Virus record (IMG/VR): IMGVR_UViG_2061766007_000682 | Strand: one strand, 5' to 3' | DNA from: an uncultured virus (IMG/VR IMGVR_UViG_2061766007_000682) | Taxonomy: Duplodnaviria > Heunggongvirae > Uroviricota > Caudoviricetes | Length of the DNA: 64,000 nt | Shown here: piece by piece, positions 33,933 to 63,598 of the stretch | Layout: each line of letters starts with the position of its first letter | Position numbering within the stretch: the first letter of the stretch is position 1 | The notes under the pieces: model-generated | What the model was told of the DNA's origin: nothing | Databases searched by the model: none | The model's input: only the letters and a program-made list of their open reading frames with translations | Position numbers and translations under genes: made by a program

Positions 33933-33968
33933 AGGCATCGGATGAAAATCTGGTGTCTTTATTTTTTT
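33931..33968 (+). terminator. Terminator at end of the late region
   Basis: AAAGGCATCGGAT / ATCTGGTGTCTTT stem plus T-run. Confidence 0.8.
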
Positions 33969-33996
33969 CGCGTGGAAAACTGATGGTATTATAGAA
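33967..33996 (+). promoter_or_regulatory. TTCGCR-N17-TATRRAA element (first of the array)
   Basis: Same motif at 34201, 34416, 34773, 35353, 35623, 36063, 36672, 37382, 37564, 37902; gap-truncated at 35057 and 35738. Confidence 0.85.
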
Positions 33997-34019
33997 GAAC
34001 AATAATTGGAGGTGATCTT

Positions 34020-34181
34020 ATGACAAAATTAGAGAGATTGATGATCAGACTTGAAGGGATAGCTAAAAATACAGCTTTCTCTGAGAGATCAGGAATCAGC
34101 TATGATAAAGAAGGAACAAAGGAAGAACTGGAAAACATTATTGGAAAAATCTACGAAGAACTGGATAAGGTAGCGGAGTAA
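34020..34181 (+). CDS. Cassette microprotein (53 aa, helical), ends KVAE
   Basis: RBS GGAGGTGAT; stop codon lies in the loop of the downstream hairpin. Confidence 0.75.
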   Translation: MTKLERLMIRLEGIAKNTAFSERSGISYDKEGTKEELENIIGKIYEELDKVAE

Positions 34182-34242
34182 TATCTGCTCCTTATCTTTT
34201 TTCGCATTATATTCTAACCTTAATATGAAAGGAGGTGATAAC

Positions 34243-34398
34243 ATGAGAACATGCTCGAATTGCAAGTATTCTAAGGTGAATCACGAAGCAGATACTTTTT
34301 ACTGTAAAGTACACTGCGACGATACACCTAAGGAATACGGGGAGAACATGTACTGCGATTATCACGTGTTTAAACCAAGAAGAGAAGGCGCAGAGTAA
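34243..34398 (+). CDS. Cassette microprotein (51 aa, Cys/His-rich), ends EGAE
   Basis: RBS AAAGGAGGTGAT; C..C.Y...C...C..H pattern. Confidence 0.75.
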   Translation: MRTCSNCKYSKVNHEADTFYCKVHCDDTPKEYGENMYCDYHVFKPRREGAE

Positions 34399-34455
34399 TC
34401 TGCCCTTCTTATTTTTTCGCATTATATTCTGTCTCCTATATAGGAGGTGATAAGT

Positions 34456-34731
34456 ATGAACGAATTTGAAAATAAAGTAATAAATGGTATATTTGTTTCA
34501 CAATATGTAGCCGCATGGGTTAAAGAGTGTGGTGGATGTGAATATCATTACATCAAAAAAGATGGAAAGATAGAACGTGTTTGGCCGTTTAGAAAATGGT
34601 TAGAACAGCTTCTTATCAATGGAAGACATCTTACCGATGATGAGGTGAGATTCATAACCAACTTTGCAACTAACGGCAAATTGGAGTTGGAGGCAAATGC
34701 ACGACATTTTAATTCAGAAACAGAACCTTAA
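34456..34731 (+). CDS. Cassette protein, copy 1 of a duplicated gene
   Basis: FENK.INGI..SQYVAAW...NGKLELE; paralogue at 36347. Confidence 0.85.
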   Translation: MNEFENKVINGIFVSQYVAAWVKECGGCEYHYIKKDGKIERVWPFRKWLEQLLINGRHLTDDEVRFITNFATNGKLELEANARHFNSETEP

Positions 34732-34734
34732 GAT

Positions 34735-34774
34735 TAAGGAGGTTACGGACGAAAGTCCGGCCTCTTTATTTTTT
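34735..34774 (+). terminator. Type B hairpin GGAC-GAAA-GTCC
   Basis: Near-identical copy at 36635-36673; related hairpin at 54480. Confidence 0.8.
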
Positions 34775-34822
34775 CGCGCCAACTCCCGGGATCTATATAG
34801 AACATATAAGGAGGATAAAACT

Positions 34823-35017
34823 ATGAAAAAGGTTTATATTGTTACTTACAACAGAGTCGATGCTAAGGGCGTCGTAATCCTGAATGAGATTTGGCATGTT
34901 TCGTCAAGTCTTGGAAGAGCTAAGTGCTGGTGTTGGGATCACCGGCATGTAGAATATATCAACAAGAACGAGAGCGCCAAACTCATCATTGAGGAAGTCG
35001 AAGTCGACGATGAGTGA
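34823..35017 (+). CDS. Cassette microprotein (64 aa)
   Basis: RBS AAGGAGG; MKKVYIV...SS...A...IEEVEVD small phage beta-alpha-beta pattern. Confidence 0.75.
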   Translation: MKKVYIVTYNRVDAKGVVILNEIWHVSSSLGRAKCWCWDHRHVEYINKNESAKLIIEEVEVDDE

Positions 35018-35022
35018 GAGCA

Positions 35023-35058
35023 ATAAGGACGCAGAGTAATCTGCTCCTTATATTTTTT
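35023..35058 (+). terminator. Type A hairpin TAAGGA-C-GCAGA-GTAA-TCTGC-TCCTTA
   Basis: Identical core at 36247, 36861 and 37532; variants at 34165 and 34384. Confidence 0.85.
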
Positions 35059-35112
35059 CGCNNNNNNNNNNNNNNNNNNNNNTATAAAAATAATTTTTAG
35101 GAGGAAACAACT

Positions 35113-35274
35113 ATGAAAAACGAAATGGAAATGAAAAAGGATATGGTAACTCGGCTTAACAAGACCATTGAGGGACTGGAGAACCAGAAACTCAATGCGA
35201 AAAATGCTGAGGAATGGCAATTCCTTGACAAATTGGAACGTAGTTTTCAGGAAGAACTAGATGCAGTAACATAA
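35113..35274 (+). CDS. Cassette microprotein (53 aa, coiled)
   Basis: RBS AGGAGG; MKNEMEMKKDMVTRL...DAVT. Confidence 0.7.
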   Translation: MKNEMEMKKDMVTRLNKTIEGLENQKLNAKNAEEWQFLDKLERSFQEELDAVT

Positions 35275-35402
35275 AGGAATTATTATTCAATGATACGGAG
35301 CGTTAACAGCGCTCTTTATCTTTTTCGTTTACAAATCTATCTATTATATTTTTTCGCGCCAAAAACACACCTCCATATAGAACAACAAAGGAGGACAAAA
35401 CT

Positions 35403-35579
35403 ATGAAAAGAGCAATGTTAATTAAGTTGGTAGTTGGATGTATCATTCTTACATCTGGTTGTGGAGGAGACAAAACTGAAACAACTAAGAAGAAAGAAGA
35501 TAGACTTCCAAATGCCACTTATTGGGAAGATGTCTTGGTAGAAGAAACCTTAGTTGAAGAAACAATTATCGGGTGGTGA
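35403..35579 (+). CDS. Cassette lipoprotein-like microprotein (58 aa)
   Basis: MKR, hydrophobic stretch, lipobox-like LTSG-C; stop TGA lies inside the downstream hairpin. Confidence 0.7.
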   Translation: MKRAMLIKLVVGCIILTSGCGGDKTETTKKKEDRLPNATYWEDVLVEETLVEETIIGW

Positions 35580-35604
35580 AATATCCACCCTTTAATTTTT
35601 TTTT
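35571..35604 (+). terminator. Type C hairpin GGGTGG-TGAAATAT-CCACCC
   Basis: Identical copy at 37354-37383. Confidence 0.8.
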
Positions 35605-35649
35605 GCCGACAAACCTGGCACGGACGCGTTATATTCTGCTACTAATATG

Positions 35650-35730
35650 AAAGGATAATATTAGCTCAGTAGGGAGAGCACCGATCTAACAAATTGGAGG
35701 TCCTGGGTTCGATCCCCAGATTTATCCTTT
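35650..35730 (+). tRNA. tRNA-like RNA, anticodon AAC (Val), atypical acceptor stem
   Basis: D arm GCTC/GAGC, anticodon stem CCGAT/ATTGG with loop CTAACAA, T arm CTGGG-TTCGATC-CCCAG; acceptor stem extended and bulged, no CCA. Confidence 0.75.
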
Positions 35731-35794
35731 ATATTTTTTCGCGTAGAAAACGGTTCTNNNNNNNNNNNNNNNNNNNNNNNNNNNNNNNNNNATT

Positions 35795-36009
35795 ATGGGT
35801 TTTATTAACAAAATTTGGAATACAAAGTGTATGAGATGCGACGAAGAATTTCCTAAAACTCAGGCGCATTCTGTAGTAGTAGATACTAAACAGTATCTGC
35901 TATGCAAGAAATGTGCTTGGGATGTGGAAGTCCTGTTGCATTGTTCGCCACTTCCAAAATTCGGAGATGAAGGCGACATGAAAGTCATTCCATCAGAGAA
36001 TTCAAAAGA
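35795..36009 (+). CDS. Cassette zinc-finger-like protein (3' end in gap)
   Basis: CMRC...LCKKC. Confidence 0.6.
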
Positions 36010-36106
36010 NNNNNNNNNNNNNNAAATTAGAGATCGGACAAAAGTCTGGTCTTCTAATTTTTTTCGCATTATATTCTGTTATCAATATGAAAGGATGGTG
36101 ATAAAA

Positions 36107-36262
36107 ATGTTATGGTTGTTATTAGCATTTATAGTATGCCTTATACTCAGTATATCGAGTGAATATACATTCTTTATTGTATTGGGTATTGGTATAGGGT
36201 TGCTTATAGACTACATACCATTTGCAATAGCAATACTTTTGGAACGTAAGGACGCAGAGTAA
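36107..36262 (+). CDS. Cassette membrane microprotein (51 aa, 2 TM), ends KDAE
   Basis: RBS AAAGGATGGTGAT; hydrophobic; stop in hairpin loop. Confidence 0.75.
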   Translation: MLWLLLAFIVCLILSISSEYTFFIVLGIGIGLLIDYIPFAIAILLERKDAE

Positions 36263-36346
36263 TCTGCTCCTTATTTTTTTTTTTTTTNNNNNNNNNNNNN
36301 NNNNNNNNNNNNNNNNNNNNNNNNNNNNNNNNNNNNGGAATGTAAA

Positions 36347-36631
36347 ATGGACGAATTTGAGAACAAAGTTATAAATGGAATATTTACCTCACAGTATGTA
36401 GCCGCGTGGGTTAAAGAGCGTGGTGAATGCGGATATCATTACATCAAGAAAGATGGAAAGATAGAGCGTGTTTGGCCGTTTAAAAAATGGTTAGAACAGC
36501 TTCTTATCAATGGAAGGCATCTTACTGATGATGAAGTCCGATTCATTACGAACTTTGCCACTAACGGTAAACTAGAACTGCAGGCAAATGCACAACATTT
36601 TAGTTTTAATGACGAAATGGTAGAACCTTAG
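36347..36631 (+). CDS. Cassette protein, copy 2 of a duplicated gene
   Basis: Highly similar to 34456-34731. Confidence 0.85.
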   Translation: MDEFENKVINGIFTSQYVAAWVKERGECGYHYIKKDGKIERVWPFKKWLEQLLINGRHLTDDEVRFITNFATNGKLELQANAQHFSFNDEMVEP

Positions 36632-36715
36632 GGTTAAGGAGGTACGGATGAAAGTCCGGCCTCTTTATTTTTTCGCATCAGAATCATATCTCTATATGAA
36701 AGGATGGTGATTTAC

Positions 36716-36877
36716 ATGCTTATGTTTATTGGACTAATTGTACTGGTTTCAAAGTTATGTATAGCCCTTAACATACAAACAGAATATGTGATAGGGATTA
36801 TATGGGGGCTTGGAATCATGGAAGCTATAAACATGCATAGACTTGTTTTATACATGAAGTATAAGGACGCAGAGTAA
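36716..36877 (+). CDS. Cassette membrane microprotein (53 aa, 2 TM), ends KDAE
   Basis: RBS AAAGGATGGTGAT; MLMFIGLIVLV...YKDAE. Confidence 0.75.
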   Translation: MLMFIGLIVLVSKLCIALNIQTEYVIGIIWGLGIMEAINMHRLVLYMKYKDAE

Positions 36878-37187
36878 TCTGCTCCTTATTTTTTTTTTTT
36901 TNNNNNNNNNNNNNNNNNNNNNNNNNNNNNNNNNNNNNNNNNNNNNNNNNNNNNTAAACTGTAAACATCGTGATGAGTGTTGCTATAGAGGAGGCTATAG
37001 TGATCATAATTCATGGATGAGTTTACATGGCGGTATGAACCCGTATTCTGATCGTTGNNNNNNNNNNNNNNNNNNNNNNNNNNNNNNNNNNNNNNNNNNN
37101 NNNNNNNNNNNNNNNNNNNNNNNNNNNNNNNNNNNNNNNNNNNNNNNNNNNNNNNNNNNNNNNNNNNNNNNNNNNNNNNNNNNNNNN

Positions 37188-37346
37188 AAAAGGTTGTGGC
37201 TTACAGGTGTCATCATTCCCGTAGCAGGGATGTGTGTGACATTGTATGCTCACGTGCCGGAAGTACGAAGGGCTGTCAACGATATGCCTCACAATATCAA
37301 GAAGAGGGTGGCTCATCTTAAGAACCGCTTTCACAGAAAGGAGTGA
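37188..37346 (+). CDS. Cassette protein, 3' part (start in gap)
   Basis: Hydrophobic segment then basic tail; followed by type C hairpin. Confidence 0.5.
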   Translation, partial: KRLWLTGVIIPVAGMCVTLYAHVPEVRRAVNDMPHNIKKRVAHLKNRFHRKE

Positions 37347-37425
37347 AGTATCTGGGTGGTGAAATATCCACCCTTTAATTTTTCGCATTATATTCTGTCC
37401 TTTAGATGAAAGGATGGTGATTTAT

Positions 37426-37545
37426 ATGACTGGAATGAGAGATAGTATGAATGACTGTGATTTGAAAAGTAGTTACGAATGCTATTCTGGAATGAGAGAT
37501 AGTATGAATGATGACGACATTAAAGAATGTGAGGACGCAGAGTAA
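37426..37545 (+). CDS. Cassette microprotein (39 aa) with internal duplication, ends EDAE
   Basis: RBS AAAGGATGGTGAT; GMRDSMND occurs twice. Confidence 0.65.
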   Translation: MTGMRDSMNDCDLKSSYECYSGMRDSMNDDDIKECEDAE

Positions 37546-37630
37546 TCTGCTCCTTATATTTTTTTCGCGTCAGAATCGTACCTCTATATAGAACTGTAAG
37601 ATCTATATAACTTTTAAGGAGGAACTTATT

Positions 37631-37848
37631 ATGGCAAGTTTTAAAGAATCTTTTAAAAACGGTATGGCGAAGCAGGGCGGAGAAATGGCAGCAAGCGTTG
37701 TCCTTTCAGCAGCANNNNNNNNNNNNNNNNNNNNNNNNNNNNNNNNNNNNNNNNNNNNNNNNNNNNNNGAACTGATGAAACAACGCCGACACAGGAATCG
37801 GTAGAACTTCCAAAAGAGATCAAAGAAGAACAGACAAAAGAGCCGTGA
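37631..37848 (+). CDS. Cassette protein, paralogue of 37971-38195 (central gap)
   Basis: Shared leader and C-terminal ELPKE..KEE..KEP. Confidence 0.65.
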
Positions 37849-37970
37849 GACTCTATAAACTTCACATGAANNNNNNNNNNAGTCTCCTAATCTTTTTTAA
37901 ATTCGCGTGAAAAACGTATCTCTATATAGAACTGTAAGATCTATATACAAAAATTTAGGAGGAACTTATT

Positions 37971-38195
37971 ATGGCAAAAGTAACAGAAGACATGAAGAAC
38001 TTTGCAGCTTATGGCGTAGCTGCTGGACTTGCACTTGGCCTGACGGTTGGAGTGACCCACTTGGTCGCAAAAGCTGGAAGCGCTATTGCAAACAAGCACA
38101 CTGCTAAAAAGGCGGCAAAACTGGAAGAAAAGAAGAAGCCCGTAGTAACGGAGCTTCCAAAAGAAGTAGTAAAGGAAGAACAGAAAGAGCCGTGA
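37971..38195 (+). CDS. Cassette single-TM protein with charged tail
   Basis: RBS AGGAGG; Ala/Gly-rich hydrophobic helix. Confidence 0.75.
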   Translation: MAKVTEDMKNFAAYGVAAGLALGLTVGVTHLVAKAGSAIANKHTAKKAAKLEEKKKPVVTELPKEVVKEEQKEP

Positions 38196-38215
38196 GACTC
38201 TCAATTTCTCACAGG

Positions 38216-38256
38216 AAAGGAGATTGGATGAAAAATCTGATCTCCTGATCTTTTTT
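38216..38256 (+). terminator. Type D hairpin AGGAGATT.GA / TC...TCTCCT
   Basis: Related hairpins at 42641 and 45539, partial at 37881. Confidence 0.75.
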
Positions 38257-38285
38257 GCCTAATTATATTTAAGGAGGTGATTGAT

Positions 38286-38396
38286 ATGGCAGATTGTAAA
38301 TCTTGTAGGCATCATACGATATGCAATATTATATTTAAAAGTAAAAAGAATCCTTTTTGTAAGCAGGAGGTAAACAACCATGTCACATACAGTTAA
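38286..38396 (+). CDS. Small Cys-rich protein (36 aa)
   Basis: RBS AAGGAGGTGAT; CKSC....C....C. Confidence 0.5.
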   Translation: MADCKSCRHHTICNIIFKSKKNPFCKQEVNNHVTYS

Positions 38397-38558
38397 TACA
38401 GCAGTAGCAAAAAGATGCATATGTGGAAGCATTCCTGTAGTAAAACCTGCTTCAAATGAAGGCGTCGCATGTATAGTAGAATGCATGTTTTGCGACGTGG
38501 ATAGTGTAATCGGATCTAATAGGCATAACGCAATTCAGGTATGGAATGAAATGATAGA
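38380..38558 (+). CDS. Lar-like zinc-ribbon protein (3' end in gap)
   Basis: CICG..P...C..C...AI..WN. Confidence 0.55.
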
Positions 38559-38717
38559 NNNNNNNNNNNNNNNNNNNNNNNNACGCAAAGTATTTAGCAC
38601 CAAATCTGTTCAACACTTATGATGATTGGTATAATAATTATGTCAAAGATTTAGGTAAAGAGCCAGACGAGTCATTAGTTGAAGAGGCAAAGTTATATTT
38701 TAAGGAGGATAAGTAAA

Positions 38718-39056
38718 ATGGGATACAGACCATACATTTATATCAAAGAAGAAGGATGGCCGTCCGGCATAGAATTATCAAAGTTCTACGGATATGTGGA
38801 TCATAAAGAATGTAAATCGATTACCTGGCTGTTAGATCATGAAAAAATAGAAGACCCTTATACATTTTATGCAGGTGAAGGTCCATATATCGAATTCACA
38901 GCTGAAGAATTCAGAGAGTGGTTTGAATTATATTGGTCCGATATAGCCGCATACAGAGAGATACACAACATGGAACAATATGATCCATATGATGAATATC
39001 CGGAGTTAAAAGACATTTACGATGATGATAGATCAAAGATGGTAGAATGGGGGTAA
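38718..39056 (+). CDS. Hypothetical protein
   Basis: RBS AAGGAGG, tightly packed ORF. Confidence 0.7.
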   Translation: MGYRPYIYIKEEGWPSGIELSKFYGYVDHKECKSITWLLDHEKIEDPYTFYAGEGPYIEFTAEEFREWFELYWSDIAAYREIHNMEQYDPYDEYPELKDIYDDDRSKMVEWG

Positions 39057-39062
39057 TAACAT

Positions 39063-39737
39063 ATGAAAAAAGATGATATTCTTGTTACGTACGGACCAGA
39101 AGGTGGAGACTGTACACGACCGTATTATATTCGTTTGAACAGACAAGACATTACAGTGCAAGAGTTTATTGATTTTATCCTAAAAGAAGCATCCGGTGAA
39201 TGGGGAACTATAGACGTAAGAGATGTAGATAAAATGACACCCGATAAGAAATATACGGTCGAATACTCTCATGGCGAAATTAAATCACAAGTCGGAGATC
39301 CGGATTGGCTATCGGCAACAATAACTAAGATGCGCGGACAAGGAGGCTGGTCATGTAGTGACTTTATGCTAACGGTAAAACCTGCGGCATCGGAAACCAA
39401 AGAGCCAAATGATCCACCCACAATTCCAAAGCAAAAGGTTCTTGTTGTATGTCGAACGGAACATCGCCCTGTGGATTATATTTCATCACAGAAACTTGCT
39501 AGTAATACTGAGATTCATATAACAAGTAAGATTTATAAGGATTACACTACTGTAATAGGTGTATGCGAATACCATGGAGATGAAAAAGAGGCTCTATCAA
39601 TTAAGATGATAAAAGACGATAAAGAGTACCTCATTTCAAAGCATGGCAGTAAATGTGTGAATGATCCTGAATATTGTTATCGTAACAAGAAATTATATTT
39701 TGAGTATTCGGTTAGTATGATGGAGGTGAAGAAATAA
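39063..39737 (+). CDS. Hypothetical protein
   Basis: 224 aa ORF in operon. Confidence 0.7.
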   Translation: MKKDDILVTYGPEGGDCTRPYYIRLNRQDITVQEFIDFILKEASGEWGTIDVRDVDKMTPDKKYTVEYSHGEIKSQVGDPDWLSATITKMRGQGGWSCSDFMLTVKPAASETKEPNDPPTIPKQKVLVVCRTEHRPVDYISSQKLASNTEIHITSKIYKDYTTVIGVCEYHGDEKEALSIKMIKDDKEYLISKHGSKCVNDPEYCYRNKKLYFEYSVSMMEVKK

Positions 39738-40087
39738 TGGAACGTGAAACGTGTCCGCAATGTGGTGCTGCAATAACGGAAGAAAAGTGTCCTTATTGCG
39801 GAACTTTATTCTACGACTTCGCGTGCATAGATTTAAAAGAACCGTTTTGGATAAAAATTAAAGATGGTAATAACATAAGACGAATGAAGGTACGTTTGCA
39901 AGGAGCTCAATATACGGTTGGCTGTCCGGATACTAGTATAGCATATTGTGATAATGAGCCTATATACATGATGACCAGTCCTGCTACGCACGAGTTTAAC
40001 ATGTCGTTTATTGTGTTACCAGATGATGGCATTCTTGCTAAAATAGTAGATACGGACGTGATAGACAAAGATACAAAAGCGTGGTGA
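39737..40087 (+). CDS. Zinc-ribbon protein
   Basis: CPQCGA...CPYCG; TAATG coupling. Confidence 0.75.
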   Translation: MERETCPQCGAAITEEKCPYCGTLFYDFACIDLKEPFWIKIKDGNNIRRMKVRLQGAQYTVGCPDTSIAYCDNEPIYMMTSPATHEFNMSFIVLPDDGILAKIVDTDVIDKDTKAW

Positions 40088-40097
40088 GGAGGATAAC

Positions 40098-40249
40098 ATG
40101 TTACAAGTAAAATGTGATGTTTGCGGCAAAGTTTTAGATATGAACGATCATAACACAATATTTTTTAAAGCAAGATTTCAACAAGTATACCATTTTCGGT
40201 TTTCCGGAGAAAATGCAACTTCTTTATCCGATTATGGTATTAAAGACAA
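40098..40249 (+). CDS. Zinc-finger-like protein (3' end in gap)
   Basis: RBS GAGGAGG; KCDVCGK. Confidence 0.55.
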
Positions 40250-40554
40250 NNNNNNNNNNNNNNNNNNNNNNNNNNNNNNNNNNNNNNNNNNNNNNNNNNN
40301 NNNNNNNNNNNNNNNNNNNNNNNNNNNNNNNNNNNNNNNNNNNNNNGAAAAAAATATTGTTTTAATAGTGCAGATGGAACTACTAAATGTATTAAAGGAA
40401 GATGCCCGTTCGTTGATATCCGTAGCTGTAGTTGTGCATTAGGTTTATTTATGAATAGACATATTAAAGAACCAGAATCTGATTACCCATTCGATCCTAA
40501 TGTCCCTGAAATGGGACAGTTGTAATTATATATTTGTAAAGGAGAATAATTAAC

Positions 40555-40948
40555 ATGAGAAAGAAAACATATTATATTTGTTTAGTTCTTGTACTTATTA
40601 GTATTTTTGCTGTCGGTTGTGAACAGTCAGATAAGGTAAGATACAATTTGAAGAAACAGGCTGACAATTTTAATCTGGTCAGACGAATCACAGTTATCAA
40701 CTGTATAAAAGGTGATACTATATTTCAAATGACTGGAAAAATGTCTATTGAAGTAGACGAAAGTGAAAATCAGTTGGAAGTAACTGTGGAGGATGGTGGA
40801 TCATNNNNNNNNNNNNNNNNNNNNNNATGTTACTTATGTGATAGAGGATCTGAATCTTGGTGCAAATGAAGTGAGCAATTACAAATACACATTGGTGTAT
40901 AACCCAGAGATGTGGATTCCTGTGGATGGACCTGAGTATGTTGAATGA
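40555..40948 (+). CDS. Phage lipoprotein
   Basis: Signal peptide with AVG-C lipobox; ADNFN..RRITVIN; frame joined across gap to TGA at 40948. Confidence 0.7.
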
Positions 40949-41196
40949 TGTAATTTTGTTAGTTATACTTATTGTAGTTTTACTTGCTTTGTATCGTGAA
41001 GGATTAAGTAAGTTATAAAATATTGAAAGAAGGTGATGAAAAGTGAGTGAGGCAGTTTGGATACACAAAGGACTGTATGGAAATGGAACCGCATTTGCAC
41101 CTTTTATGGATTTATATGAGTGTTCTAATTGCAAGGCTCTTTCTGTTGTACTTTTTGATGAATGCCCGGAATGTCATTTGAATATGAAGAAAGAAG

Positions 41197-41562
41197 GTGA
41201 AGAGAATGGAACTTGATAGAAGATTTGACAAAATGTACTTTGATGCAGAAAAAAAGAAAGCTTTGGAATCTGATTTAGAATCCAATAACGAATCGATGAT
41301 ACAAAAAATGGTAGAGAGTTTGGTTAAAGCAGAAGAGGAACTTAAGTATATAGAGCTTCGGAATAAAGGAATCATATCTGACGTTGTGCTTGTCATGAAT
41401 CCAGGACATAAAGGAGTTATTGAACAGGCATTATATTCTGCAGGTATAAAAAAGATTCCTATCATTTATGTTGATTATGTAGAGCTTGATAAAGCATACG
41501 CGATTACAGATAAGCACTTAGTTGAAAATATTAAGAATAATCTGTCTTGGGAAGAATGGTGA
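41197..41562 (+). CDS. Hypothetical protein
   Basis: 121 aa ORF in operon; start uncertain. Confidence 0.65.
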   Translation: MKRMELDRRFDKMYFDAEKKKALESDLESNNESMIQKMVESLVKAEEELKYIELRNKGIISDVVLVMNPGHKGVIEQALYSAGIKKIPIIYVDYVELDKAYAITDKHLVENIKNNLSWEEW

Positions 41563-41568
41563 AGAGAA

Positions 41569-41799
41569 ATGAGTAGAGAATATTTTCTTGAGGACCCACT
41601 TCACCCTAATGGCGGTATTACCATAAAGTGCAGAGACGAACATGATTGTGTTTTCTGTGAGCATTGTACAGATGTATTTTGGGATTATACAAGTCTCATT
41701 TACATGATTTTTTGCAATGAAGATCATGACCCTTGGACCAGACCATGTAAACAGTTTAAAGAACGAAGTGTAAAGGACGGTGAAAAAGATGAAACATAA
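41569..41799 (+). CDS. Cys-rich hypothetical protein
   Basis: CVFCEHC...C...C..F. Confidence 0.65.
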   Translation: MSREYFLEDPLHPNGGITIKCRDEHDCVFCEHCTDVFWDYTSLIYMIFCNEDHDPWTRPCKQFKERSVKDGEKDET

Positions 41800-42360: not shown

Positions 42361-42373
42361 TCCGCTAATCGAA

Positions 42374-42403
42374 TTCGCGCGAAAATATGGTCCTCTTATA
42401 GAT
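42374..42403 (+). promoter_or_regulatory. TTCGCG-N17-TATAGAT element
   Basis: Same spacing as array elements; heads a solitary cassette. Confidence 0.75.
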
Positions 42404-42429
42404 AACGATATTAAAAGGAGGATGAATTT

Positions 42430-42618: not shown

Positions 42619-42681
42619 TGAAGTTATCTACCAAAACAAAAAGGAGATTGGAATTATATTCTAGTCTCCTGATCTTTTTGA

Positions 42682-42861: not shown

Positions 42862-42890
42862 AATTATATTTAAGTTAGGAGTGTGAAACT

Positions 42891-43202: not shown

Positions 43203-43206
43203 AATT

Positions 43207-43407: not shown

Positions 43408-43410
43408 TGT

Positions 43411-43692: not shown

Positions 43693-43705
43693 GGAGGTGT
43701 AATAT

Positions 43706-44988: not shown

Positions 44989-45219
44989 ATGGACAATCCT
45001 GAGATCGTGAAGGCTGTGCCATGTCATTCATGCGGTAAACAGCCTCACACATTTAAATACAGAGACACCGATGATGGTGAACAACGATTTGAGATTTGGT
45101 GTGCTACGATGAATTGTGGAGAGCCAATTGCTATCAAGACCAAGGTTAGCATGCGTGAAGCAATTATATTGTGGAATAAGGCGCAGGCGGAGAAATCGCA
45201 CGAGAATCTACCGTCTTAA
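44989..45219 (+). CDS. Lar-like zinc-ribbon protein
   Basis: PCHSCG..P...C....C...EAI..WN. Confidence 0.6.
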   Translation: MDNPEIVKAVPCHSCGKQPHTFKYRDTDDGEQRFEIWCATMNCGEPIAIKTKVSMREAIILWNKAQAEKSHENLPS

Positions 45220-45224
45220 TAGAA
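45195..45224 (+). promoter_or_regulatory. ATCGCA-N17-AATAGAA element
   Basis: Variant of the array motif upstream of 45258. Confidence 0.6.
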
Positions 45225-54089: not shown

Positions 54090-54119
54090 GACGCGCGAAA
54101 ATCTATTGATATTATAGAA
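54090..54119 (+). promoter_or_regulatory. GACGCG-N17-TATAGAA element
   Basis: Same spacing as array elements. Confidence 0.7.
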
Positions 54120-55334: not shown

Positions 55335-56321
55335 ATGGGATTCAAAGAAACTATTCTTGAGAAGACCGCAGGCGCAAGATTGTTCTACAAGGATCATCAG
55401 TCTGAGATTGAAATTGGAACTGGTATTGCGTGTTTCGCTCTGTCTGTTATCACAGCAGCTAGAGCAGGAATTAAAACAAAGAAGATCATTGATGATTACA
55501 ACAAAGCTGCATGCGAGGCCGAGGTGCATCGTCAGGAAGGCATGGTAACCGTTTGGTCTGACAATCAGCAGGAGATCATACCGTATACGGAAGAGGATTT
55601 TAAAAAGGAACTCCGTAACATCAAGCTTCGTACGGCCGGTAAGATCGCAGTAACATGGGCTCCTTCAGCTCTCGGCTTTGCCGGAGGTACAAGTCTTGTC
55701 CTGCATAGTCATCATCTAATGGCTCAATCTAACATTGCTCTTGCCGCTGCACTTAAGACAAGTGAAGAACAGCTTAAGAAGTACAGGGATAAGAATGCAG
55801 AAAAGATTGGCGAAGAAAAAGAACAGCAGGTGTATGACGGTCAGGAAACTGAGAAGAAAGGCAAGAAAGAGTATGTTCTTCAGGGCACACCGTTATCTAA
55901 ATATGCCAGACTGATGAGTAAGGATACGCTCGGTCGTTCTGCTGATTGGTGCAACAGCTCGTGCGATTATAATTTCGGACGTGTCAAGAGAATCAATGAG
56001 TGGGCAAATAGACAGCTTAAGATGAATGGCGTTGTAACACGAAGAGAAGTGTATGAAGCGCTTGGCTTCGATGTTACGAATGAAGATCCTGATTGTTCCG
56101 TAGATGGATGGAGACTGAAGAAATATGGTGGTAAGACTGATGAAGGTGGTATTGAGATCAGAATTATTGACCATATCGGTGGAGATCCTAATAATGTAAC
56201 CTATGTACGTGACGAGTTTGGGGACGGTTACGTACGTTCCGCGGATGCATTCTGGATTGATTTAAACTGTGAAGGTTGTATTCTTGCTGTTAGTACATTG
56301 AAGAAGCTTGGAGGAGCGTAA
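55335..56321 (+). CDS. Membrane-anchored phage protein, paralogue of 48103
   Basis: TM segments, YR......GEEKE, EVYEALG...GW, D.NC.G.I. Confidence 0.75.
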   Translation: MGFKETILEKTAGARLFYKDHQSEIEIGTGIACFALSVITAARAGIKTKKIIDDYNKAACEAEVHRQEGMVTVWSDNQQEIIPYTEEDFKKELRNIKLRTAGKIAVTWAPSALGFAGGTSLVLHSHHLMAQSNIALAAALKTSEEQLKKYRDKNAEKIGEEKEQQVYDGQETEKKGKKEYVLQGTPLSKYARLMSKDTLGRSADWCNSSCDYNFGRVKRINEWANRQLKMNGVVTRREVYEALGFDVTNEDPDCSVDGWRLKKYGGKTDEGGIEIRIIDHIGGDPNNVTYVRDEFGDGYVRSADAFWIDLNCEGCILAVSTLKKLGGA

Positions 56322-56322
56322 A

Positions 56323-56856
56323 ATGAAATATCTGAATGTTATAATTAGTTGTGTCTGTGCTATAGGCGGCGGCTTAGCTGGTTACTATTATGGTAAGCAG
56401 AAGGAAGTAAAAGCTTACGAAGCAGATATTGCATCATTAAAAGAAGAGTATCAGAAAAAGATCGATGAAGCCAAGAAAGCGGGGAGAATGGAGATGCTTA
56501 AGAATATGAGCAAAGGCCCAGTTGATGGTGAAGAACAGAAACTGAAGGAGAACGGGGATATTGATGATGAAATCGTTGAAGTTGTATCCGAGAACGATGC
56601 TCTTGATAGCCCCGTTATTGAAGACATTATATTTTTCGGTAAAGACAAAGTGTGGTGGAATCAGGATCGTGAGAAGACATACAATAACAACGATCCGTTT
56701 ACTATTCCAACAGATTTCTTTACATATTTTGGAGAAGATAAGGCGGATCTGATTTATCTTCATAACACGAAGACAAATGAGTACTTTGCCGTACGTTACA
56801 ATCCTGGATCCTATGTTTCTAATGTTCTCGGTTATGATGATACCTCTGATGATTGA
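56323..56856 (+). CDS. N-terminally anchored acidic protein
   Basis: GG.AGYYY anchor, coiled coil, FGE...D.IY..N. Confidence 0.7.
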   Translation: MKYLNVIISCVCAIGGGLAGYYYGKQKEVKAYEADIASLKEEYQKKIDEAKKAGRMEMLKNMSKGPVDGEEQKLKENGDIDDEIVEVVSENDALDSPVIEDIIFFGKDKVWWNQDREKTYNNNDPFTIPTDFFTYFGEDKADLIYLHNTKTNEYFAVRYNPGSYVSNVLGYDDTSDD

Positions 56857-56885
56857 TGCTTCTCTAAAGAGAGGAGGAATTATAT

Positions 56886-57449
56886 TTGGGAGGTACGAGA
56901 TATTTGTCGCGTGCCGAGGTTGAAAGAGATCAGTATATTGGATGGCTTGCCGATAAAATTAATATATATGTCGGCGGCCAGTATTCCAATCTGATACATT
57001 GCTTATGGGAAATTCCATTTGTGTGGCAAGTACCTGATGACAGAAATAGAGCGATCGATGGTAACATGCTACGTACGATTTATATTCAGTCACATACGGT
57101 TTTTAATACTAATATTGTGTTCCCGTATGAAGATGGTTGCACATTCTTGGAATTTCTCATAGCTCTTTCAATGAGGGCAAACGACATTATGTACGAACCA
57201 GGTGTCGACAAAACTACCGATTATTTTTGGCAGATTATAAGCAATATTGGCTTAGATCATTGTGTTAATGACACGTTTGGTAGGACTTGGGACGCCTTTT
57301 ATGTACATGAAACGATAGGAAAAATACTCTCCAGAGACTATGATTATGACGGTTTGGGAGGATTATTTCCACTAAAAAATCCAATAAATGATCAAAAAAC
57401 GGTGCCAATTTGGTATCAAATGAACGCCTATTTGAATGAAAATTCATAA
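56886..57449 (+). CDS. Conserved-type phage hypothetical protein
   Basis: D.NRA.DG..LR, LE.LIAL..R, G.GGLFPL, W.QMNAYL; start uncertain. Confidence 0.7.
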   Translation: MGGTRYLSRAEVERDQYIGWLADKINIYVGGQYSNLIHCLWEIPFVWQVPDDRNRAIDGNMLRTIYIQSHTVFNTNIVFPYEDGCTFLEFLIALSMRANDIMYEPGVDKTTDYFWQIISNIGLDHCVNDTFGRTWDAFYVHETIGKILSRDYDYDGLGGLFPLKNPINDQKTVPIWYQMNAYLNENS

Positions 57450-57652
57450 AAATTCAATTTAAAAATGTCAAATTTTGTTGATATTTAGGCCGTTTACGGG
57501 CTTAATTTGTTGACAAACCTGGCACGAACGGCGAAAAAATGTCAAATTTTAAGTCAAAATATGTCAAAAATCTTTGATATTTTTGATAAAATTGTTGAAA
57601 AAACATGAAAAATTCATCAAAATTTGCACAAAATTGCACAAAACTGTTTTTA
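57450..57652. other. Putative replication origin region
   Basis: Non-coding, AT-rich, repeated (AT)GTCAAA and TTGA(C/T)A elements, upstream of the helicase-primase. Confidence 0.5.
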
Positions 57653-58065
57653 ANNNNNNNNNNNNNNNNNNNNNNNNNNNNNNNNNNNNNNNNNNNNNNN
57701 NNNNNNNNNNNNNNNNNNNNNNNNNNNNNNNNNNNNNNNNNNNNNNNNNNNNNNNNNNNNNNNNNNNNNNNNNNNNNNNNNNNNNNNNNNNNNNNNNNNN
57801 NNNNNNNNNNNNNNNNNNNNNNNNNNNNNNNNNNNNNNNNNNNNNNNNNNNNNNNNNNNNNNNNNNNNNNNNNNNNNNNNNNNNNNNNNNNNNNNNNNNN
57901 NNNNNNNNNNNNNNNNNNNNNNNNNNNNNNNNNNNNNNNNNNNNNNNNNNNNNNNNNNNNNNNNNNNNNNNNNNNNNNNNNNNNNNNNNNNNNNNNNNNN
58001 NNNNNNNNNNNNNNNNNNNNNNNNNNNNNNNNNNNNNNNNNNNNNNNNNNNNNNNNNNNNNNNNC

Positions 58066-59738
58066 TCCAAAGATTTGATGGTAAAAGGTTCTAAGTTCTA
58101 TGCTATATGGGATGAAGAAGCCGGATTATGGTCTACAGATTTATATGACGTTCAAAGATTAATTGATAAAGAACTCGATGACTATGTAGCCAAGAATAAT
58201 TTTGACACTAGAGTCAAGATTAGATATCTGGCTTCTTTCTCTTCACAGATTTGGACTACGTTCTTGAAGTATGTAGCTTCATGTCCTGACAATTATAAAT
58301 TGCTGGATAGAACAATTACGTTTGCTGATACACCAGTTAAGAAGAGCGATTATATTTCTAGGAAGCTTCCATATACTTTGAATGATATACCAACTCCAGC
58401 GTATGATGAATTAACAAATTCATTATATTCTCCTGATCAGAAAGAAAAGTTTGAATGGGTGATTGGATCGATAATAGCTGGCGATTCAAGAAAGATTCAA
58501 AAGTTTCTTGTGTTTTATGGAAAACCTGGAACTGGTAAAAGTACAATTCTTAATATTATACAGAAATTATTTGAAGGATACTTTAATTCATTCAATTCAA
58601 AAGCATTAGGAAATTCCAATTCTGAATTTTCAATAGAACCTTTTAGATTAAATCCACTAATTGCTATTGAACATGAAGGTGATCTATCGCATATTGAAGA
58701 TAACACGAGATTAAATAGCATAACGAGCCATGAACCGATAACTGTAAACTTAAAGCATAAATCTATGTACACTGATACATTTACGTCAATGTGTATTATT
58801 GGTACTAATAAACCTGTAAAGATTACAGATTCAAAGTCTGGTATTATTCGAAGACTAATTGATGTAAATCCTAAAGGTATTATTATTCCTGAAAAGAGAT
58901 ACGACGCATTATATCATCAAATAGATTTTGAGTTAGGTGGAATCGCAAAACATTGTTTGGATGTCTATACTTCACTTGGTAAAAATTATTACAAAGATTA
59001 CAAGCCGATTGCAATGATGCAGAAAACTGATGTATTCTTCAATTATATTCAAGAGTATTACAATGAGTATGCAGATGCAAATGAAGTAACATTGAAAAAA
59101 GCTTGGATGAATTATTTGGAATTTTGTAATAATACTAATATTAAGTATGACATGCCTCAGTATAAGTTCAGAGAAGAATTAAAAGAATATTTTGATGAAT
59201 TCCTTGAACAAACTACTATGGGAAATGGAATGCGAGTACGTAGTTTATATAGAGGTTTTAAGAAAGAGAAAATTTATTTAGAAGTAACAAAGCCTGAAAA
59301 AGATAAAACTAAAAAGAACGAGGCTAAGCCATGGGCATTTAATTTAAATAGCACAAAGTCATTGTTAGACAAAGCATTGGCTGACTGTCCTGCACAATAT
59401 GCAAAAGAAGATGGAACACCTGTGACAACTTGGAGTCGTAATATGTATATATTAAAAGACATCGACACAAAAGAGTTGCATTATGTGAAACCGCCTCTTA
59501 ATCATATTGTTATTGACTTTGACTTGAAGAACTCTAATGGCGAAAAAGATTTCNNNNNNNNNNNNNNNNNNNNNNNNNNNNNNNNNNNNNNNNNNNNNNN
59601 NNNNNNNNNNNNNNNNNNCATCTTCATTATATTTATCAAGGAGACCCAGAAATGCTGGCATCTGTCTATGATACAAATATTGAAGTAAAAGTATTTAAAG
59701 GTCGTTCATCTTTGAGGCGTAAACTTACTAAATGTAAT
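58066..59738 (+). CDS. SF3 (D5-like) helicase plus primase-like domain (5' end in gap)
   Basis: Walker A GKPGTGKS, GTNK, RRL; HIVIDFD and, after a gap, HLHY AEP-like motifs. Confidence 0.8.
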
Positions 59739-59775
59739 NNNNNNNNNNNNNNNNNNNNNNNNNGCGGTTGACAAA

Positions 59776-61863
59776 ATGGTAGATTTTACAGTATTAAAGA
59801 ATGAAGCAGCATTAGACACTTATATTCGTAAGTGCCTTAATAAGGAATATTCTCCACATGCGACTAAGCCAATGATAGATTATATTTATGACGCATTGCT
59901 TAAAGCATATGAATCAGGCATGGATTATGACATGTCTAAATGGTATTCTGATATTATGGCCTTCGGACAGAATAGTTCTCATAATGCTGATTATTGTGTA
60001 CGAAAAGTAGTTGAAATGAAATTTAAAGGAAAGAAGTATGAACAGCAGGAAGAAGTTCCAACTAAAATCTCGGATGGGAAATATGACGATGATAGACTTG
60101 TGTTCTTTGATATCGAAGTATTTCCTAATCTTTTAATGATTGTGTGGAAATTTAAAGACGATGATCATATGAATGTCCTTATTAATCCAGAACAAGAAGA
60201 AGTAAGACGATTGTTTCGTTTGAAACTTGTTGGATTCAACTGCCGTCGATACGATAATCACATTGTGTATGCTGCAGGAGCAGGGTTTACACTAAAAGAA
60301 TTATATTCTTTGAGCAAGATGATTATTAAAGAGCAAAAAGGATTTATTGTGCCAGCGTATGGATTGTCGTATGCTGACATTTATGACTTCTCGACTACTA
60401 AGCAAAGTCTTAAGCGATTTGAGATTGATCTTGGTATTCATCACCAGGAACTTCCATTAGATTGGAACAAACCTGTNNNNNNNNNNNNNNNNNNNNNNNN
60501 NNNNNNNNNNTGTAACGACGTTAGAGCAACTGAAGCAACATTTAATAAGTTGCAAGCTGACTATGATGCTAGATGTATTATTGCTGAGCTGGCAGGTTTA
60601 ACACCTAACTCAACAACAAGAGTTTGCACAGAGCATATTATATTTGGCGAAGACATGCATCCGCAAGATAAGTTTGTTTACACCGACTTGTCTACAATCT
60701 TTCCGGGCTATGTATTTAAATCCGGTAAGAGTACATATGCTGGTGAAGTAATCGGAGAAGGCGGATATGTATATGCTGAACCCGGTGCGTATGGCAAAGT
60801 NNNNNNNNNNNNNNNNNNNNNNNNNNNNNNNNNNNNNNNNNNNNNNNNNNNNNNNNNNNNNNNNNNNNNNNNNNNNNNNNNNNNNNNNNNNNNNNNNNNN
60901 NNNNNTAAATGGTATCTTGGTTCCATATATGTCTGATGAAGCAGCTTGTAAAAAATTAGCTTATGCTCTAAAGATCGTAATTAATAGCGTATATGGTTTA
61001 ACATGTGCATCATTTGAGAACAGGTTTAGAGACCCAAGAAACATTGACAACATTGTTGCTAAGAGAGGCGCATTATTCATGTGCACTCTTAAACACAAGG
61101 TTCAGGAAATGGGTTACAAGGTTGTTCATATTAAAACGGATTCAATTAAGATTGCAGAGCCAGATGAGACAATTATTAAATTCGTAACAGAATTTGGTAA
61201 ATCATATGGTTACTCGTTTGAGGTTGAACATGAATTTGAACGAATCTTACTTGTAAATGATGCTGTTTATGTTGGTAAAACTACAGAACCGGATGACGAT
61301 GGTCTTTATTGGACAGCAACCGGAGCTGAGTTTAAACGGCCATACATATTTAAGATGCTCTTTACTAAGCAACCAATTATATTCTCAGACTTGTGTGAAA
61401 CAAAGCAAGTGCAAACTGAGATTTATTTGGATTTTAATGAAGAGAATCCTGATAAGCATAGATACACTTTTGTTGGTAAGGTCGGATCATTCTTACCAGT
61501 CAGAGAAGGTTGTGGCGGAGGCTTACTTATGAGAAAAGTAAATGCTGATGACCAAATACCTGTTGACGTCTGGTTGGATGAGAAAGATGTTGTTGACGAA
61601 AAAGACTCAAAGAAATTTAATAAATTTGCGTCAGTAACAGGAGCAAAAGGGTATCGTTGGAAAGAGGCTGAACTCATTAAAGATGACTTCGAGTCTCAAA
61701 TTGATATGACATACTATAATAATATGGCAGATGAAGCAAAGAATCATATTATGGAATTCTGTGATTATGAACTGTTTGTTTCAGATGACGATTATATAGT
61801 NNNNNNNNNNNNNNNNNNNNNNNNNNNNNNNNAAATGAAGATTTACCATGGGACAACAATTAA
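59776..61863 (+). CDS. DNA polymerase (3'-5' exonuclease plus family B-like motifs)
   Basis: FDIEVF, GFN..YD, C.NDV..T; KIVINSVYG and KTDS; joined across gaps. Confidence 0.85.
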
Positions 61864-61892
61864 AACATTTAAAATTTTAGGAGGATTTAAAA

Positions 61893-62366
61893 ATGAAAAT
61901 TAAGGTAATGAGACCCGCAAATGGTGGAAGAGATGTTTATGTTATTCAGAATGCTCAGCTTAAGTATAAGAACTTTAGTGGCAAGCAGGGCAAGTTCCCA
62001 GGATCTAGATCGGTCAACGTTCTTGTTGATGCTGAGGATAAGGCAATGATGGAAGCAAAGGGTCTCAGAGTTAATGAGAGAACTAATCCGCATACAAACG
62101 AAGTTGAGTATACAATTAGAATTAATGTTAAGATGCTTCCTGGCAACTCTCCGAAGATCACTCAGAGAACTGGTAANNNNNNNNNNNNNNNNGAAGTAAC
62201 TGTAGAAGCTCTCGACAGTGTTTCCATCAGCAAGGCAGATGTTGCCTGGACTTACGGTTTTGGAACAGGAAATCCCGTTGCTTACCTTAAGGAAATGAAT
62301 GTGGTTATTGTTCCTTCCATCTTTGCACCGGATGCGAATGATTATTACATGGAGACCCATGATTGA
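61893..62366 (+). CDS. Putative single-stranded DNA-binding protein
   Basis: NA....KNFSG...R, LD...I..AD, AYLK.M; position in replication module. Confidence 0.6.
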   Translation: MKIKVMRPANGGRDVYVIQNAQLKYKNFSGKQGKFPGSRSVNVLVDAEDKAMMEAKGLRVNERTNPHTNEVEYTIRINVKMLPGNSPKITQRTGXXXXXXEVTVEALDSVSISKADVAWTYGFGTGNPVAYLKEMNVVIVPSIFAPDANDYYMETHD

Positions 62367-63577
62367 TTCACTTAGATGATTATCAGTTAGATGCGATTAA
62401 AAGGCTAAGGACTGGCTCCATTCTTTGTGGTGGAGTCGGTTCTGGCAAATCGCGAACTGCATTAGCATACTATTATATTCAGCAAGGAGGGTCTTTGGAT
62501 CCTTACTCTCCTATGGATTTTTATACGGCTAAGGATTTATACATAATAACTACGGCAAGAAAACGTGATACTTATGAATGGGAAGATGAAACAATTCCAT
62601 TTCTGCTAAACAAGGAAGACGATAAACACCGTAATTATATTTGTAACTACTATGTTGATTCTTGGAACAACATTAAAAAATATGCAAACGTTAAAGATTC
62701 ATTTTTCATCTTTGATGAACAGAGAGTAGTTGGATATGGTGCATGGACTCAAGCATTTTTAAAAATAGCAAAGAACAATGCATGGATTTTATTAAGTGCT
62801 ACACCTGGCGATTGCTGGTCAGATTATATTCCAGTGTTTGTTGCAAATGGCTTTTATAAAAATAAAACTGAGTTTACAAAAGAGCATATCATTTACAAGC
62901 CATTTAGGTCTTATCCTATAATTGATCGATATGTTAATACTAGGAAGCTTGATTATTTTAAAAGTAAAATTTTAATAGACATGGATTACAAAAGTCCAGC
63001 AACAGAAATTTATATAGATGTTCCTGTTTCATATGATAGAGATAAATACATNNNNNNNNNNNNNNNNNNNNNNNNNNNNNNNNNNNNNNNNNNNNNNNNT
63101 ATTGTAAATGCTAGCGAATATTGTAGTATACTTAGAAAGATTATTAATAGCGATAAATCAAGATCCGATGAAGTTATTAGATTATGCGAAAGACATAAAA
63201 AGGTAATTATATTTTATAACTTTGATTATGAACTCGAGATATTGCAAAATTTATTAACTGTGCATAAGATACCATTTTCCGAATGGAATGGTCATAAGCA
63301 TGAACCAATTTTGAAATCAGATCATTGGGTTTACTTGATACAGTATTCTGCTGGGTCTGAAGGTTGGAACTGCATAGAGACAAATGTAATTATATTCTAT
63401 TCACAGACTTATTCATATAAGCAAATGATTCAGTCAGCTGGAAGAATTAATCGAAGGAATACACCTTTCAAAGAATTATATTTGTATCGATTTAAATCTA
63501 AAGCAGGAATTGATAAGGCAATAACTCGAGCTTTGAACAACAAAGAAGATTTTAATGCCAGAAAGTTCTTCGCGTAG
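62363..63577 (+). CDS. SF2 (SNF2-like) helicase
   Basis: GVGSGKS, FDEQ, LSATPG, EG.N, Q..GR..R. Confidence 0.9.
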   Translation: MIHLDDYQLDAIKRLRTGSILCGGVGSGKSRTALAYYYIQQGGSLDPYSPMDFYTAKDLYIITTARKRDTYEWEDETIPFLLNKEDDKHRNYICNYYVDSWNNIKKYANVKDSFFIFDEQRVVGYGAWTQAFLKIAKNNAWILLSATPGDCWSDYIPVFVANGFYKNKTEFTKEHIIYKPFRSYPIIDRYVNTRKLDYFKSKILIDMDYKSPATEIYIDVPVSYDRDKYXXXXXXXXXXXXXXXXXIVNASEYCSILRKIINSDKSRSDEVIRLCERHKKVIIFYNFDYELEILQNLLTVHKIPFSEWNGHKHEPILKSDHWVYLIQYSAGSEGWNCIETNVIIFYSQTYSYKQMIQSAGRINRRNTPFKELYLYRFKSKAGIDKAITRALNNKEDFNARKFFA

Positions 63578-63598
63578 AAATCTAACTATATTATAGAA
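63569..63598 (+). promoter_or_regulatory. TTCGCG-N17-TATAGAA element
   Basis: Overlaps helicase stop; same spacing as array elements. Confidence 0.75.

Follow-up and report, generated by a model that had tools for sequence, protein, structure and literature searches.

A spaced CGCR element as the probable early promoter of a phage-encoded two-barrel RNA polymerase

The 64,000-nucleotide (nt) stretch of DNA analyzed here, hereafter the window, comes from an uncultured member of the Caudoviricetes (IMG/VR record IMGVR_UViG_2061766007_000682) and carries a promoter-like element repeated ahead of small genes. An initial annotation described this element as TTCGCR-N17-TATRRAA and placed the start of transcription inside its downstream box, which raises the question of which enzyme reads the element and where the RNA begins. 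The element is real, is found throughout a phage lineage, and is present in relatives from two bacterial phyla. Judged from comparative sequence evidence, it is probably the early promoter of the phage's own RNA polymerase, a single-chain two-barrel enzyme of the YonO/RdRP-like kind. Phage polymerases with promoters of their own are a known class; how single-chain, YonO-like two-barrel enzymes find promoters is the gap addressed here.

The element in the window and in related phages

All 15 copies reported initially were recounted in the window; each is on the plus strand, and the distance from CGCR to the box is exactly 17 nt in every one. The spacing of the proposed consensus therefore stands, whereas its strict form fits only 9/15 copies. 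The conserved core is CGCR-N7-C-N9-WAT-RRRR, which includes a third conserved base that had been missed, a C at spacer position 8 (14/15 copies). CGCR is preceded by TT in 12/15 copies, and 8/15 copies lie directly 3′ of a hairpin and T-tract; most of the leading TT can be ascribed to the U-tract of the terminator before it. Because copies directly abut a hairpin and T-tract, the array can be described as a chain of cassettes, each consisting of a terminator, a promoter, a ribosome-binding site (RBS), and a short gene. Box positions are counted throughout from the first base of the 7-nt box, and the predicted +1 is position 4, the purine after TAT. The array and the copies of the element are as follows.

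33933..38256, plus strand, small-gene cassette array (terminator hairpin and T-tract, promoter, RBS, short open reading frame [ORF])
33969..33996, plus strand, copy 1, CGCG to box end; predicted +1 33993; directly after a -23.5 kcal/mol hairpin with T-tract
34203..34230, plus strand, copy 2; predicted +1 34227; RBS from box position 5
34418..34445, plus strand, copy 3; predicted +1 34442; RBS AGGAGGTGA from box position 4; ATG 34456
34775..34802, plus strand, copy 4; predicted +1 34799
35059..35089, plus strand, probable further copy, interrupted by an N gap
35355..35382, plus strand, copy 5; predicted +1 35379
35625..35652, plus strand, copy 6, no TT in front, precedes the tRNA-like gene; predicted +1 35649
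35740..35757, plus strand, probable further copy, interrupted by an N gap
36065..36092, plus strand, copy 7; predicted +1 36089
36674..36701, plus strand, copy 8; predicted +1 36698
37384..37411, plus strand, copy 9, box GATGAAA; predicted +1 37408
37566..37593, plus strand, copy 10; predicted +1 37590
37904..37931, plus strand, copy 11; predicted +1 37928
42376..42403, plus strand, copy 12, the weakest, with A replacing the conserved C; predicted +1 42400
45197..45224, plus strand, copy 13, box AATAGAA; predicted +1 45221
54092..54119, plus strand, copy 14, ahead of the replication gene block; predicted +1 54116
63571..63598, plus strand, copy 15, ahead of the VRR-NUC / Cas4-like / RNA polymerase block; predicted +1 63595

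The pattern CGCR-N17-[TAG]ATRRR has 17 matches on the plus strand of the window and 0 on the minus strand; at each of the other spacings from 12 to 22, the same pattern has 0 to 3 plus-strand matches. A first-order Markov null yielded a mean of 2.8 matches and a maximum of 7 in 100. The pattern was tuned on the window, which makes this null lenient, and the relatives serve as the independent check. Two of the 17 matches (47271 and 54265) are intragenic and do not have the conserved C; they were taken as chance. The structural region (1-33,900) contains none of the 15 copies, and its best profile score, 12.4 at 15828, falls inside the tape measure gene.

Protein comparison places the window in the lineage of Lactococcus phage 1706, FP_oengus, and the AM-AU-BI-CC-DJ-EL actinophages. 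Its helicase has matches in 252 phage records, chiefly Arthrobacter, Gordonia, Streptomyces, and Lactococcus phages together with the Faecalibacterium phage FP_oengus. The accessible text of Koert et al. (10.1101/842583) describes the phage group to which this lineage belongs as ranging over Actinobacteria and Firmicutes.

A motif search in related phages, named beforehand as a check, found the element at the same spacing in 8/8 cultured relatives (FP_oengus, Circum, CapnMurica, Tanis, DrGrey, and Count as whole genomes, and 1706 and ReqiPoco6 in part), whose hosts belong to the Bacillota and Actinomycetota. With a profile built over all material, each relative was found to carry 9 to 16 sites, with 0 to 1 on the opposite strand. 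The first 30 kb of FP_oengus has 15 regular-expression matches at spacing 17 versus 0 to 2 on the plus strand at other spacings, and 80 viral loci around the helicase have 189 spacing-17 matches on the plus strand and 11 on the minus strand, with 14 to 48 at other spacings. The invariant features of the distinct sites are CGCR, the C at spacer position 8, the T at box position 3 (98% of 308 distinct sites), and the purine at position 4 (99%). Box positions 4 to 7 are purines in more than 95% of the 308 sites, and the constraint stops at position 7; many of these sites belong to closely related phages and cannot be counted as independent.

One further record, G002 (the record behind locus L106), carries 31 promoter copies over about 41 kb and has no match to the structural genes of the window. 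Despite its rating as complete, it probably represents one portion of a larger genome in which the array has expanded greatly.

Start of transcription and the candidate polymerase

The positions of RBSs limit how far downstream the RNA can begin. An ORF led by an RBS lies within 70 nt of 252 of the 319 distinct sites. The RBS would be lost in 0/252 cases if the RNA began at box position 4, in 6/252 at position 8, in 34/252 at position 10, and in 44/252 at position 13. Start codons begin sharply at box positions 16 to 18 (22 sites, with one outlier at 13), although about five of these 22 look like chance ORFs in terminator leaders. GGAGGTG is found from box position 4 or 5 ahead of 16 ORFs from 9 unrelated protein groups, including the ORF after 34418 in the window, and tRNA-like genes begin at box positions 5 to 11 in 9 loci. 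Because the RBS would be lost, both usual sigma70 starts are excluded for a sizeable minority of genes. The RNA most likely begins at or near the purine after TAT; the predicted +1 was set at position 4 because T3-R4 is a pyrimidine-purine step, as is typical of initiation sites, and because the purine run begins there. Leaderless translation from ATGs inside the box was also considered; such ATGs open 40 or more codons in 64/245 cases, an uncontrolled count.

These results refine the observations on which the proposed start had been based. The description of the box as a non-canonical -10 was borne out, since a T occupies its sixth position in only 4/308 sites and a start 7 nt further on, at position 13, incurs the loss given above. 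The reported overlap of RBS and box at five sites is correct insofar as the RBSs begin at the purine after TAT, but only the site given as 34416 (copy 3) loses its RBS if transcription starts at box position 10. At 34201, 36063, 36672, and 37382, part of the RBS survives a start 6 nt past TAT (free energy about -7.5). The tRNA-like RNA said to begin at 35650 is placed by ARAGORN and Rfam at 35653/35654, and the extended stem alone begins at 35650.

35653..35728, plus strand, tRNA-like RNA, anticodon AAC; stem extendable to 35650; then T-tract

A tRNA-like RNA directly follows the promoter also in FP_oengus, ReqiPoco6, and the loci L043, L076, L081, L092, L135, and L136. These RNAs mostly have an odd anticodon arm, a long acceptor stem, and a T-tract instead of CCA. 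An AAC anticodon is unusual in bacteria, and the RNA is possibly a decoy.

A candidate reader of the element is encoded across the lineage, namely an RNA polymerase of about 900 amino acids (aa), YonO/RdRP-like and two-barrel, with helix-turn-helix (HTH) domains. In FP_oengus it is gp55, annotated as an RNA-dependent RNA polymerase and located after the VRR-NUC and exonuclease genes; homologues of gp55 were found in 250 records, with a host spread equal to that of the helicase. In loci retrieved with the VRR-NUC protein of the window, the polymerase gene is downstream of the VRR-NUC gene in 79/79 viral cases, at a distance of 500 to 700 nt in all but one. The window ends just after its own VRR-NUC gene, and two features precede that edge.

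63595..63650, plus strand, hairpin and T-tract directly after copy 15 (-22.8 kcal/mol, z -6.15)
63666..63959, plus strand, VRR-NUC-type endonuclease gene, followed in relatives by a Cas4-like gene and the RNA polymerase gene

Locus L187, which has 96.6% DNA identity to window positions 63709-64000, continues past the window edge; it contains the Cas4-like gene and, after it, codes for the first 205 polymerase residues. A second locus, L186, encodes the full 917-aa polymerase and keeps the element and a hairpin ahead of the block. From these two relatives, the polymerase gene of the window phage is predicted to lie just past the window edge.

The assignment of the protein as a polymerase draws on its catalytic motif and predicted fold. 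In an alignment of 52 sequences (51 representatives of 77 full-length ORFs, and L186), the DxDGD catalytic loop reads D525-F-D527-G-D529 (DFDGD) and is invariant. The AlphaFold model (predicted local distance difference test [pLDDT] 84) matched QDE-1 (E 3e-9) and P23-45 gp64 (E 4e-7) in Foldseek, as well as RDR2, gp62, and gp96, with low template modeling (TM) scores of 0.16 to 0.34 overall and 0.25 to 0.34 for QDE-1 and gp64; the model is consistent with a two-barrel polymerase fold. The Pfam RdRP match (E 0.008) is under its cut-off, and a polymerase profile run against PDB sequences returned no polymerase, only repeat and HTH proteins. Pfam HTH domains were found at residues 91-123 and 874-910, including sigma70 region-4 models at both ends; such matches are common among HTH proteins and therefore do not show a sigma ancestry.

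Several observations touch on whether the enzyme is packaged. The GenBank label of the 1706 and ReqiPoco6 homologues is "structural protein," and many other records of the polymerase are labeled merely "helix-turn-helix protein." The 1706 label reportedly stems from virion mass spectrometry. DUF7211 was detected on 7/18 proteins scanned, all seven from the window, and the polymerase N-termini have an HYG stretch similar to the DUF7211 motif. As a short N-terminal motif, DUF7211 occurs in seven proteins encoded at window positions 3445-6186 and 30889-33932.

Other proteins were considered as readers. No sigma factor was found among the 97 window proteins. Among 105 proteins tested, the non-structural ones present in 8/8 relatives are the primase-polymerase, the helicase, the Cas4-like nuclease, the RNA polymerase, and proteins of 87 and 187 aa, and the RNA polymerase is the only lineage-wide protein with a recognized DNA-binding domain. 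A 360-aa multi-HTH protein of the window (46821-47903) was rejected as the reader, as it has no homologue in any of the 8 relatives.

The association of element and polymerase was also assessed starting from the motif. A scan of viral contigs by motif alone covered 80 of at least 149 loci on 58 contigs, 48 of which were taken on. The polymerase is encoded by 36/48 of these motif-bearing records and by 19/20 of those that are at least 90% complete. The corresponding scan of bacterial genomes covered 80 of at least 130 loci, and 33 genomes with a contig of at least 60 kb were taken on; 24 of the 33 hold the polymerase, which in 21/33 is encoded downstream on the same strand, no more than 30 kb away (by coordinates only, contig numbers not being mapped to accessions). 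Because the polymerase is mostly beside the motif in bacterial genomes, the motif marks prophages of the lineage rather than host genes. The prophage polymerase genes of G054, G072, and G070 are truncated or have an internal stop.

The promoter ahead of the polymerase block is accompanied by secondary structure. The hairpin at 63595-63650 is a putative terminator or attenuator of the block, and L186 has a different hairpin at the matching place. The stem has a folding energy of -22.8 kcal/mol from box position 4 and -15.1 from position 10; its outer pairs are formed with the T-tract and prove little about the start. At many loci among L091-L169, a hairpin and T-tract usually come directly after the promoter that precedes the VRR-NUC / Cas4-like / polymerase block; their sequence varies, and they may represent a conserved attenuator or a small RNA that times polymerase synthesis. 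The promoter and hairpin before the polymerase block suggest autoregulation.

If the polymerase reads the element, the promoter would run from CGCR (-24 to -21) through a C at -13 and an A/T-rich stretch for melting to the T at -1 and the purines from +1 to +4. The enzyme would probably be carried in the virion and enter with the DNA, its HTH domains being the likely readers of CGCR. It would then transcribe the small early genes with one cassette per transcript, each transcript stopping at a terminator whose T-tract abuts the next promoter. The complete form of this model, in which a virion-carried enzyme of about 100 kDa recognizes CGCR at -24, C at -13, and the T-R start through its own HTH domains, with no sigma factor and unchanged across two phyla, is more tentative, and we consider its chances to fall slightly short of even.

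The analysis provides an exact, testable promoter with a predicted start for one polymerase family, represented by about 250 sequenced records, mostly of cultured phages. If the model holds, it would explain one early program in Lactococcus, gut clostridia, and actinobacteria, account for the small-gene arrays as separate cassettes, and supply a defined promoter for a YonO-like enzyme. The enzyme and element would also be a small orthogonal polymerase-promoter pair for Gram-positive bacteria, independent of host machinery.

Alternative explanations and known systems

A start within the box, read by a phage-specific factor, was the proposal of the initial annotation. It is the best-supported account and a fitting polymerase exists, but the RBS data only require the start to lie no later than about box position 8, and a second -10 register is present. 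This second register underlies an explanation that we regard as unlikely, although it deserves consideration, in which the host polymerase and its primary sigma factor use the hexamer ending at TAT as the -10 while a phage activator at CGCR (near -29) replaces the -35, in the manner of MotA at T4 middle promoters; the phage polymerase would then serve other genes, for example late ones like YonO. Consistent with this explanation, actinophage sites read CTATAATGAGA, TAnnnT occurs in register 3 nt upstream of the box in 65/68 of them and in 9/9 sites of 1706, and actinophage copies include a perfect TATAAT. A start at position 8 would cost few RBSs, the accessible text on Gordonia phage Vardy (cluster DJ) interprets a 50-bp motif with TATAAT as a sigma70 promoter (PMC9671010), and YonO itself, according to the accessible text of PMC5467207, transcribes late genes. 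However, TAnnnT is present in only 5/15 window copies, 76/195 gut or environmental sites, 6/11 sites of G001, and 1/30 sites of G002, and the key A is missing from most sites. The normal start for this hexamer, position 10, carries the RBS losses noted above, a single activator would have to work with the host polymerases of two phyla, and the lineage-wide protein with a recognized DNA-binding domain is the polymerase itself.

Two further explanations were weighed. It is very improbable that the element is an ordinary strong host promoter with TTCGCR as a divergent -35, the box as the -10, and no need for a phage factor. The 17-nt spacing is indeed the sigma70 optimum (within 15-19 nt), and TTCGCA shares 4/6 positions with TTGACA, helped by the TT of most window copies; this likeness nevertheless fails, as the core is CGCR and TT precedes it in only 67/308 sites. 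The sixth box position is T in 0/15 window copies and 4/308 sites overall, and a start at position 13 would be the costliest of those considered. A sigma70 scan of 33000-46000 returned 56 sites, versus 44 ± 6 expected, an uninformative total, and listed 0 of the 13 copies within that region in the required register; in bacterial genomes, moreover, the pattern is mostly beside the phage polymerase gene. Still less credible is a repeat that acts mainly as a boundary or recombination signal for shuffling cassettes and is no promoter at all. The accessible text of the Giantsbane preprint proposes such a role for a 32-bp repeat in cluster AU phages (10.1101/2020.01.10.891226), and the window has a duplicated cassette gene (34456-34714 and 36347-36605, 87% identical) and repeated terminators. 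Yet it is the spacer that diverges and the fixed positions and their distance that are preserved, whereas homologous recombination would need the opposite. In addition, single copies stand outside the array ahead of conserved gene blocks (54092 and 63571), and the copies keep a fixed register with RBSs and tRNA-like genes. Cassette shuffling between similar ends is likely as a side effect. A sigma54 promoter was dropped because the sequence is unlike the sigma54 consensus.

Several other results weigh against, or limit the case for, the phage polymerase as the reader. Its co-occurrence with the element reflects shared descent and is not phylogenetically independent; any lineage-wide protein would score alike. 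The 187-aa protein (window 56886-57449) and the 87-aa protein (L186 4566-4829, after the polymerase), both of unknown function, share its distribution in 8/8 relatives and are candidates for polymerase cofactors or an activator. The polymerase gene of the window phage is outside the window and is deduced through relatives. The ReqiPoco6 "structural protein" label derives from similarity to 1706, and DUF7211 was not listed by Pfam for the two polymerases scanned (among the top 25 matches for one scan). A hairpin-pairing test revealed no excess of G:C pairing at box positions 4 to 9 (20 stems of 307 sites, no position significant), and its register is ambiguous because of purine repeats. Copy 6 is overlapped by a weak sigma70-like match at 35606-35635. 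Two RNA runs compared with window positions 56000-64000 gave 0 contigs and 3 short partial matches, contigs being a kind of evidence that cannot show starts. Finally, temperate members exist (FP_oengus has an integrase), and a prophage would need another route to its first polymerase expression, which the promoter and hairpin before the polymerase block do not solve.

The polymerase family has been recognized before. A 1706 protein was named as one YonO-like family in the accessible text of PMC2919709, and that of Koert et al. treats the polymerase as a signature gene of the phage group, with HTH domains at both ends, proposes polymerase activity, and names no promoter. YonO and the 1706 family are alike as single-chain two-barrel enzymes of about 100 kDa with DxDGD. 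They differ in that YonO is prophage expressed and serves late genes, its promoter sequence being left open in the accessible text of PMC5467207, whereas the present element stands before small genes of early type and its proposed enzyme carries a structural label. Thermus phage P23-45, the closest worked example, has a virion polymerase (gp96) and a non-virion one (gp64), both two-barrel and both served by conserved promoter motifs of their own, which, according to the accessible text of PMC10770324, were assigned by start-site mapping and co-occurrence among relatives. The likeness to P23-45 lies in the predicted fold (gp64, gp62, and gp96) and in the possession of promoters; the present system differs in that a single free-standing polymerase has HTH domains at its ends and the spaced element consists of CGCR, C, and TR.

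T4 middle promoters combine a MotA box with a sigma70 -10, and T4-type phages have PeSL cassettes. These systems share with the present one a phage-specific upstream box at a fixed distance from an AT-rich hexamer and promoter/stem-loop cassettes around small variable genes, but they use the host polymerase and a canonical -10, which most Bacillota-phage sites here lack. The Vardy 50-bp motif and the cluster AU 32-bp repeat come from this lineage, likewise lie before small genes in the corresponding part of the genome, and are probably this element, as judged by position and TATAAT rather than by motif logos. Each report stays within one cluster and, in its accessible text, makes no tie to a phage polymerase or to Bacillota phages. 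No literature linking the repeat to the polymerase was found in a search that excluded supplements, Garneau 2008, and Summer 2011, which may describe it. Likewise, no promoter for the lineage was found in the accessible text of PMC11283538, 10.64898/2026.01.26.701711, 10.1101/2022.11.23.517428, PMC12859696, PMC7302621, PMC5759034, and PMC5883640.

Gene layout and other signals

The long genes of the window are all on the plus strand, in the order HNH, terminase, portal, protease-capsid, tail, lysis, small-gene array, primase-polymerase, helicase, and VRR-NUC-type nuclease. About 90% of the words of the array are present in two public bovine-gut DNA runs from one sample, which may be its source; runs with only a small share were left out of account as to habitat. 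One contig from the public runs extends 1,089 nt beyond the edge of the window. An exact-match scan of the window end against metagenome contigs gave no match, the near relatives having come from a protein search. Membership in the Heliusvirales was considered and not established; the accessible text of the paper on that order mentions no oengus, Arthrobacter, RNA polymerase, or promoter.

A second short signal, TTATATT, occurs 109 times on the plus strand of the window and 0 times on the minus strand (null about 14), both in genes and before RBSs, and its one-mismatch neighbors have little strand skew. Skew of the ATATT core is also seen in Tanis (129:1), DrGrey (102:1), the analyzed part of ReqiPoco6 (168:7), Count (225:16), G001, and G002 and was not found in the analyzed part of 1706, Circum, or CapnMurica. 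Because this distribution across relatives differs from that of the CGCR element, TTATATT is considered separate from it. It could represent a second, short class of promoter, or it could give direction to replication, recombination, or packaging.

Three further features of the window were noted. A very A/T-rich, non-coding stretch with repeats (57450-57653, partly in an N gap) is located just before the primase-polymerase gene and is a possible replication origin. The product of the gene at 22513-24822 is a minor tail protein to which repeated stretches of endolysin type (cell wall binding) are fused, and a tandem pair of major tail protein genes is located at 10430-12013.

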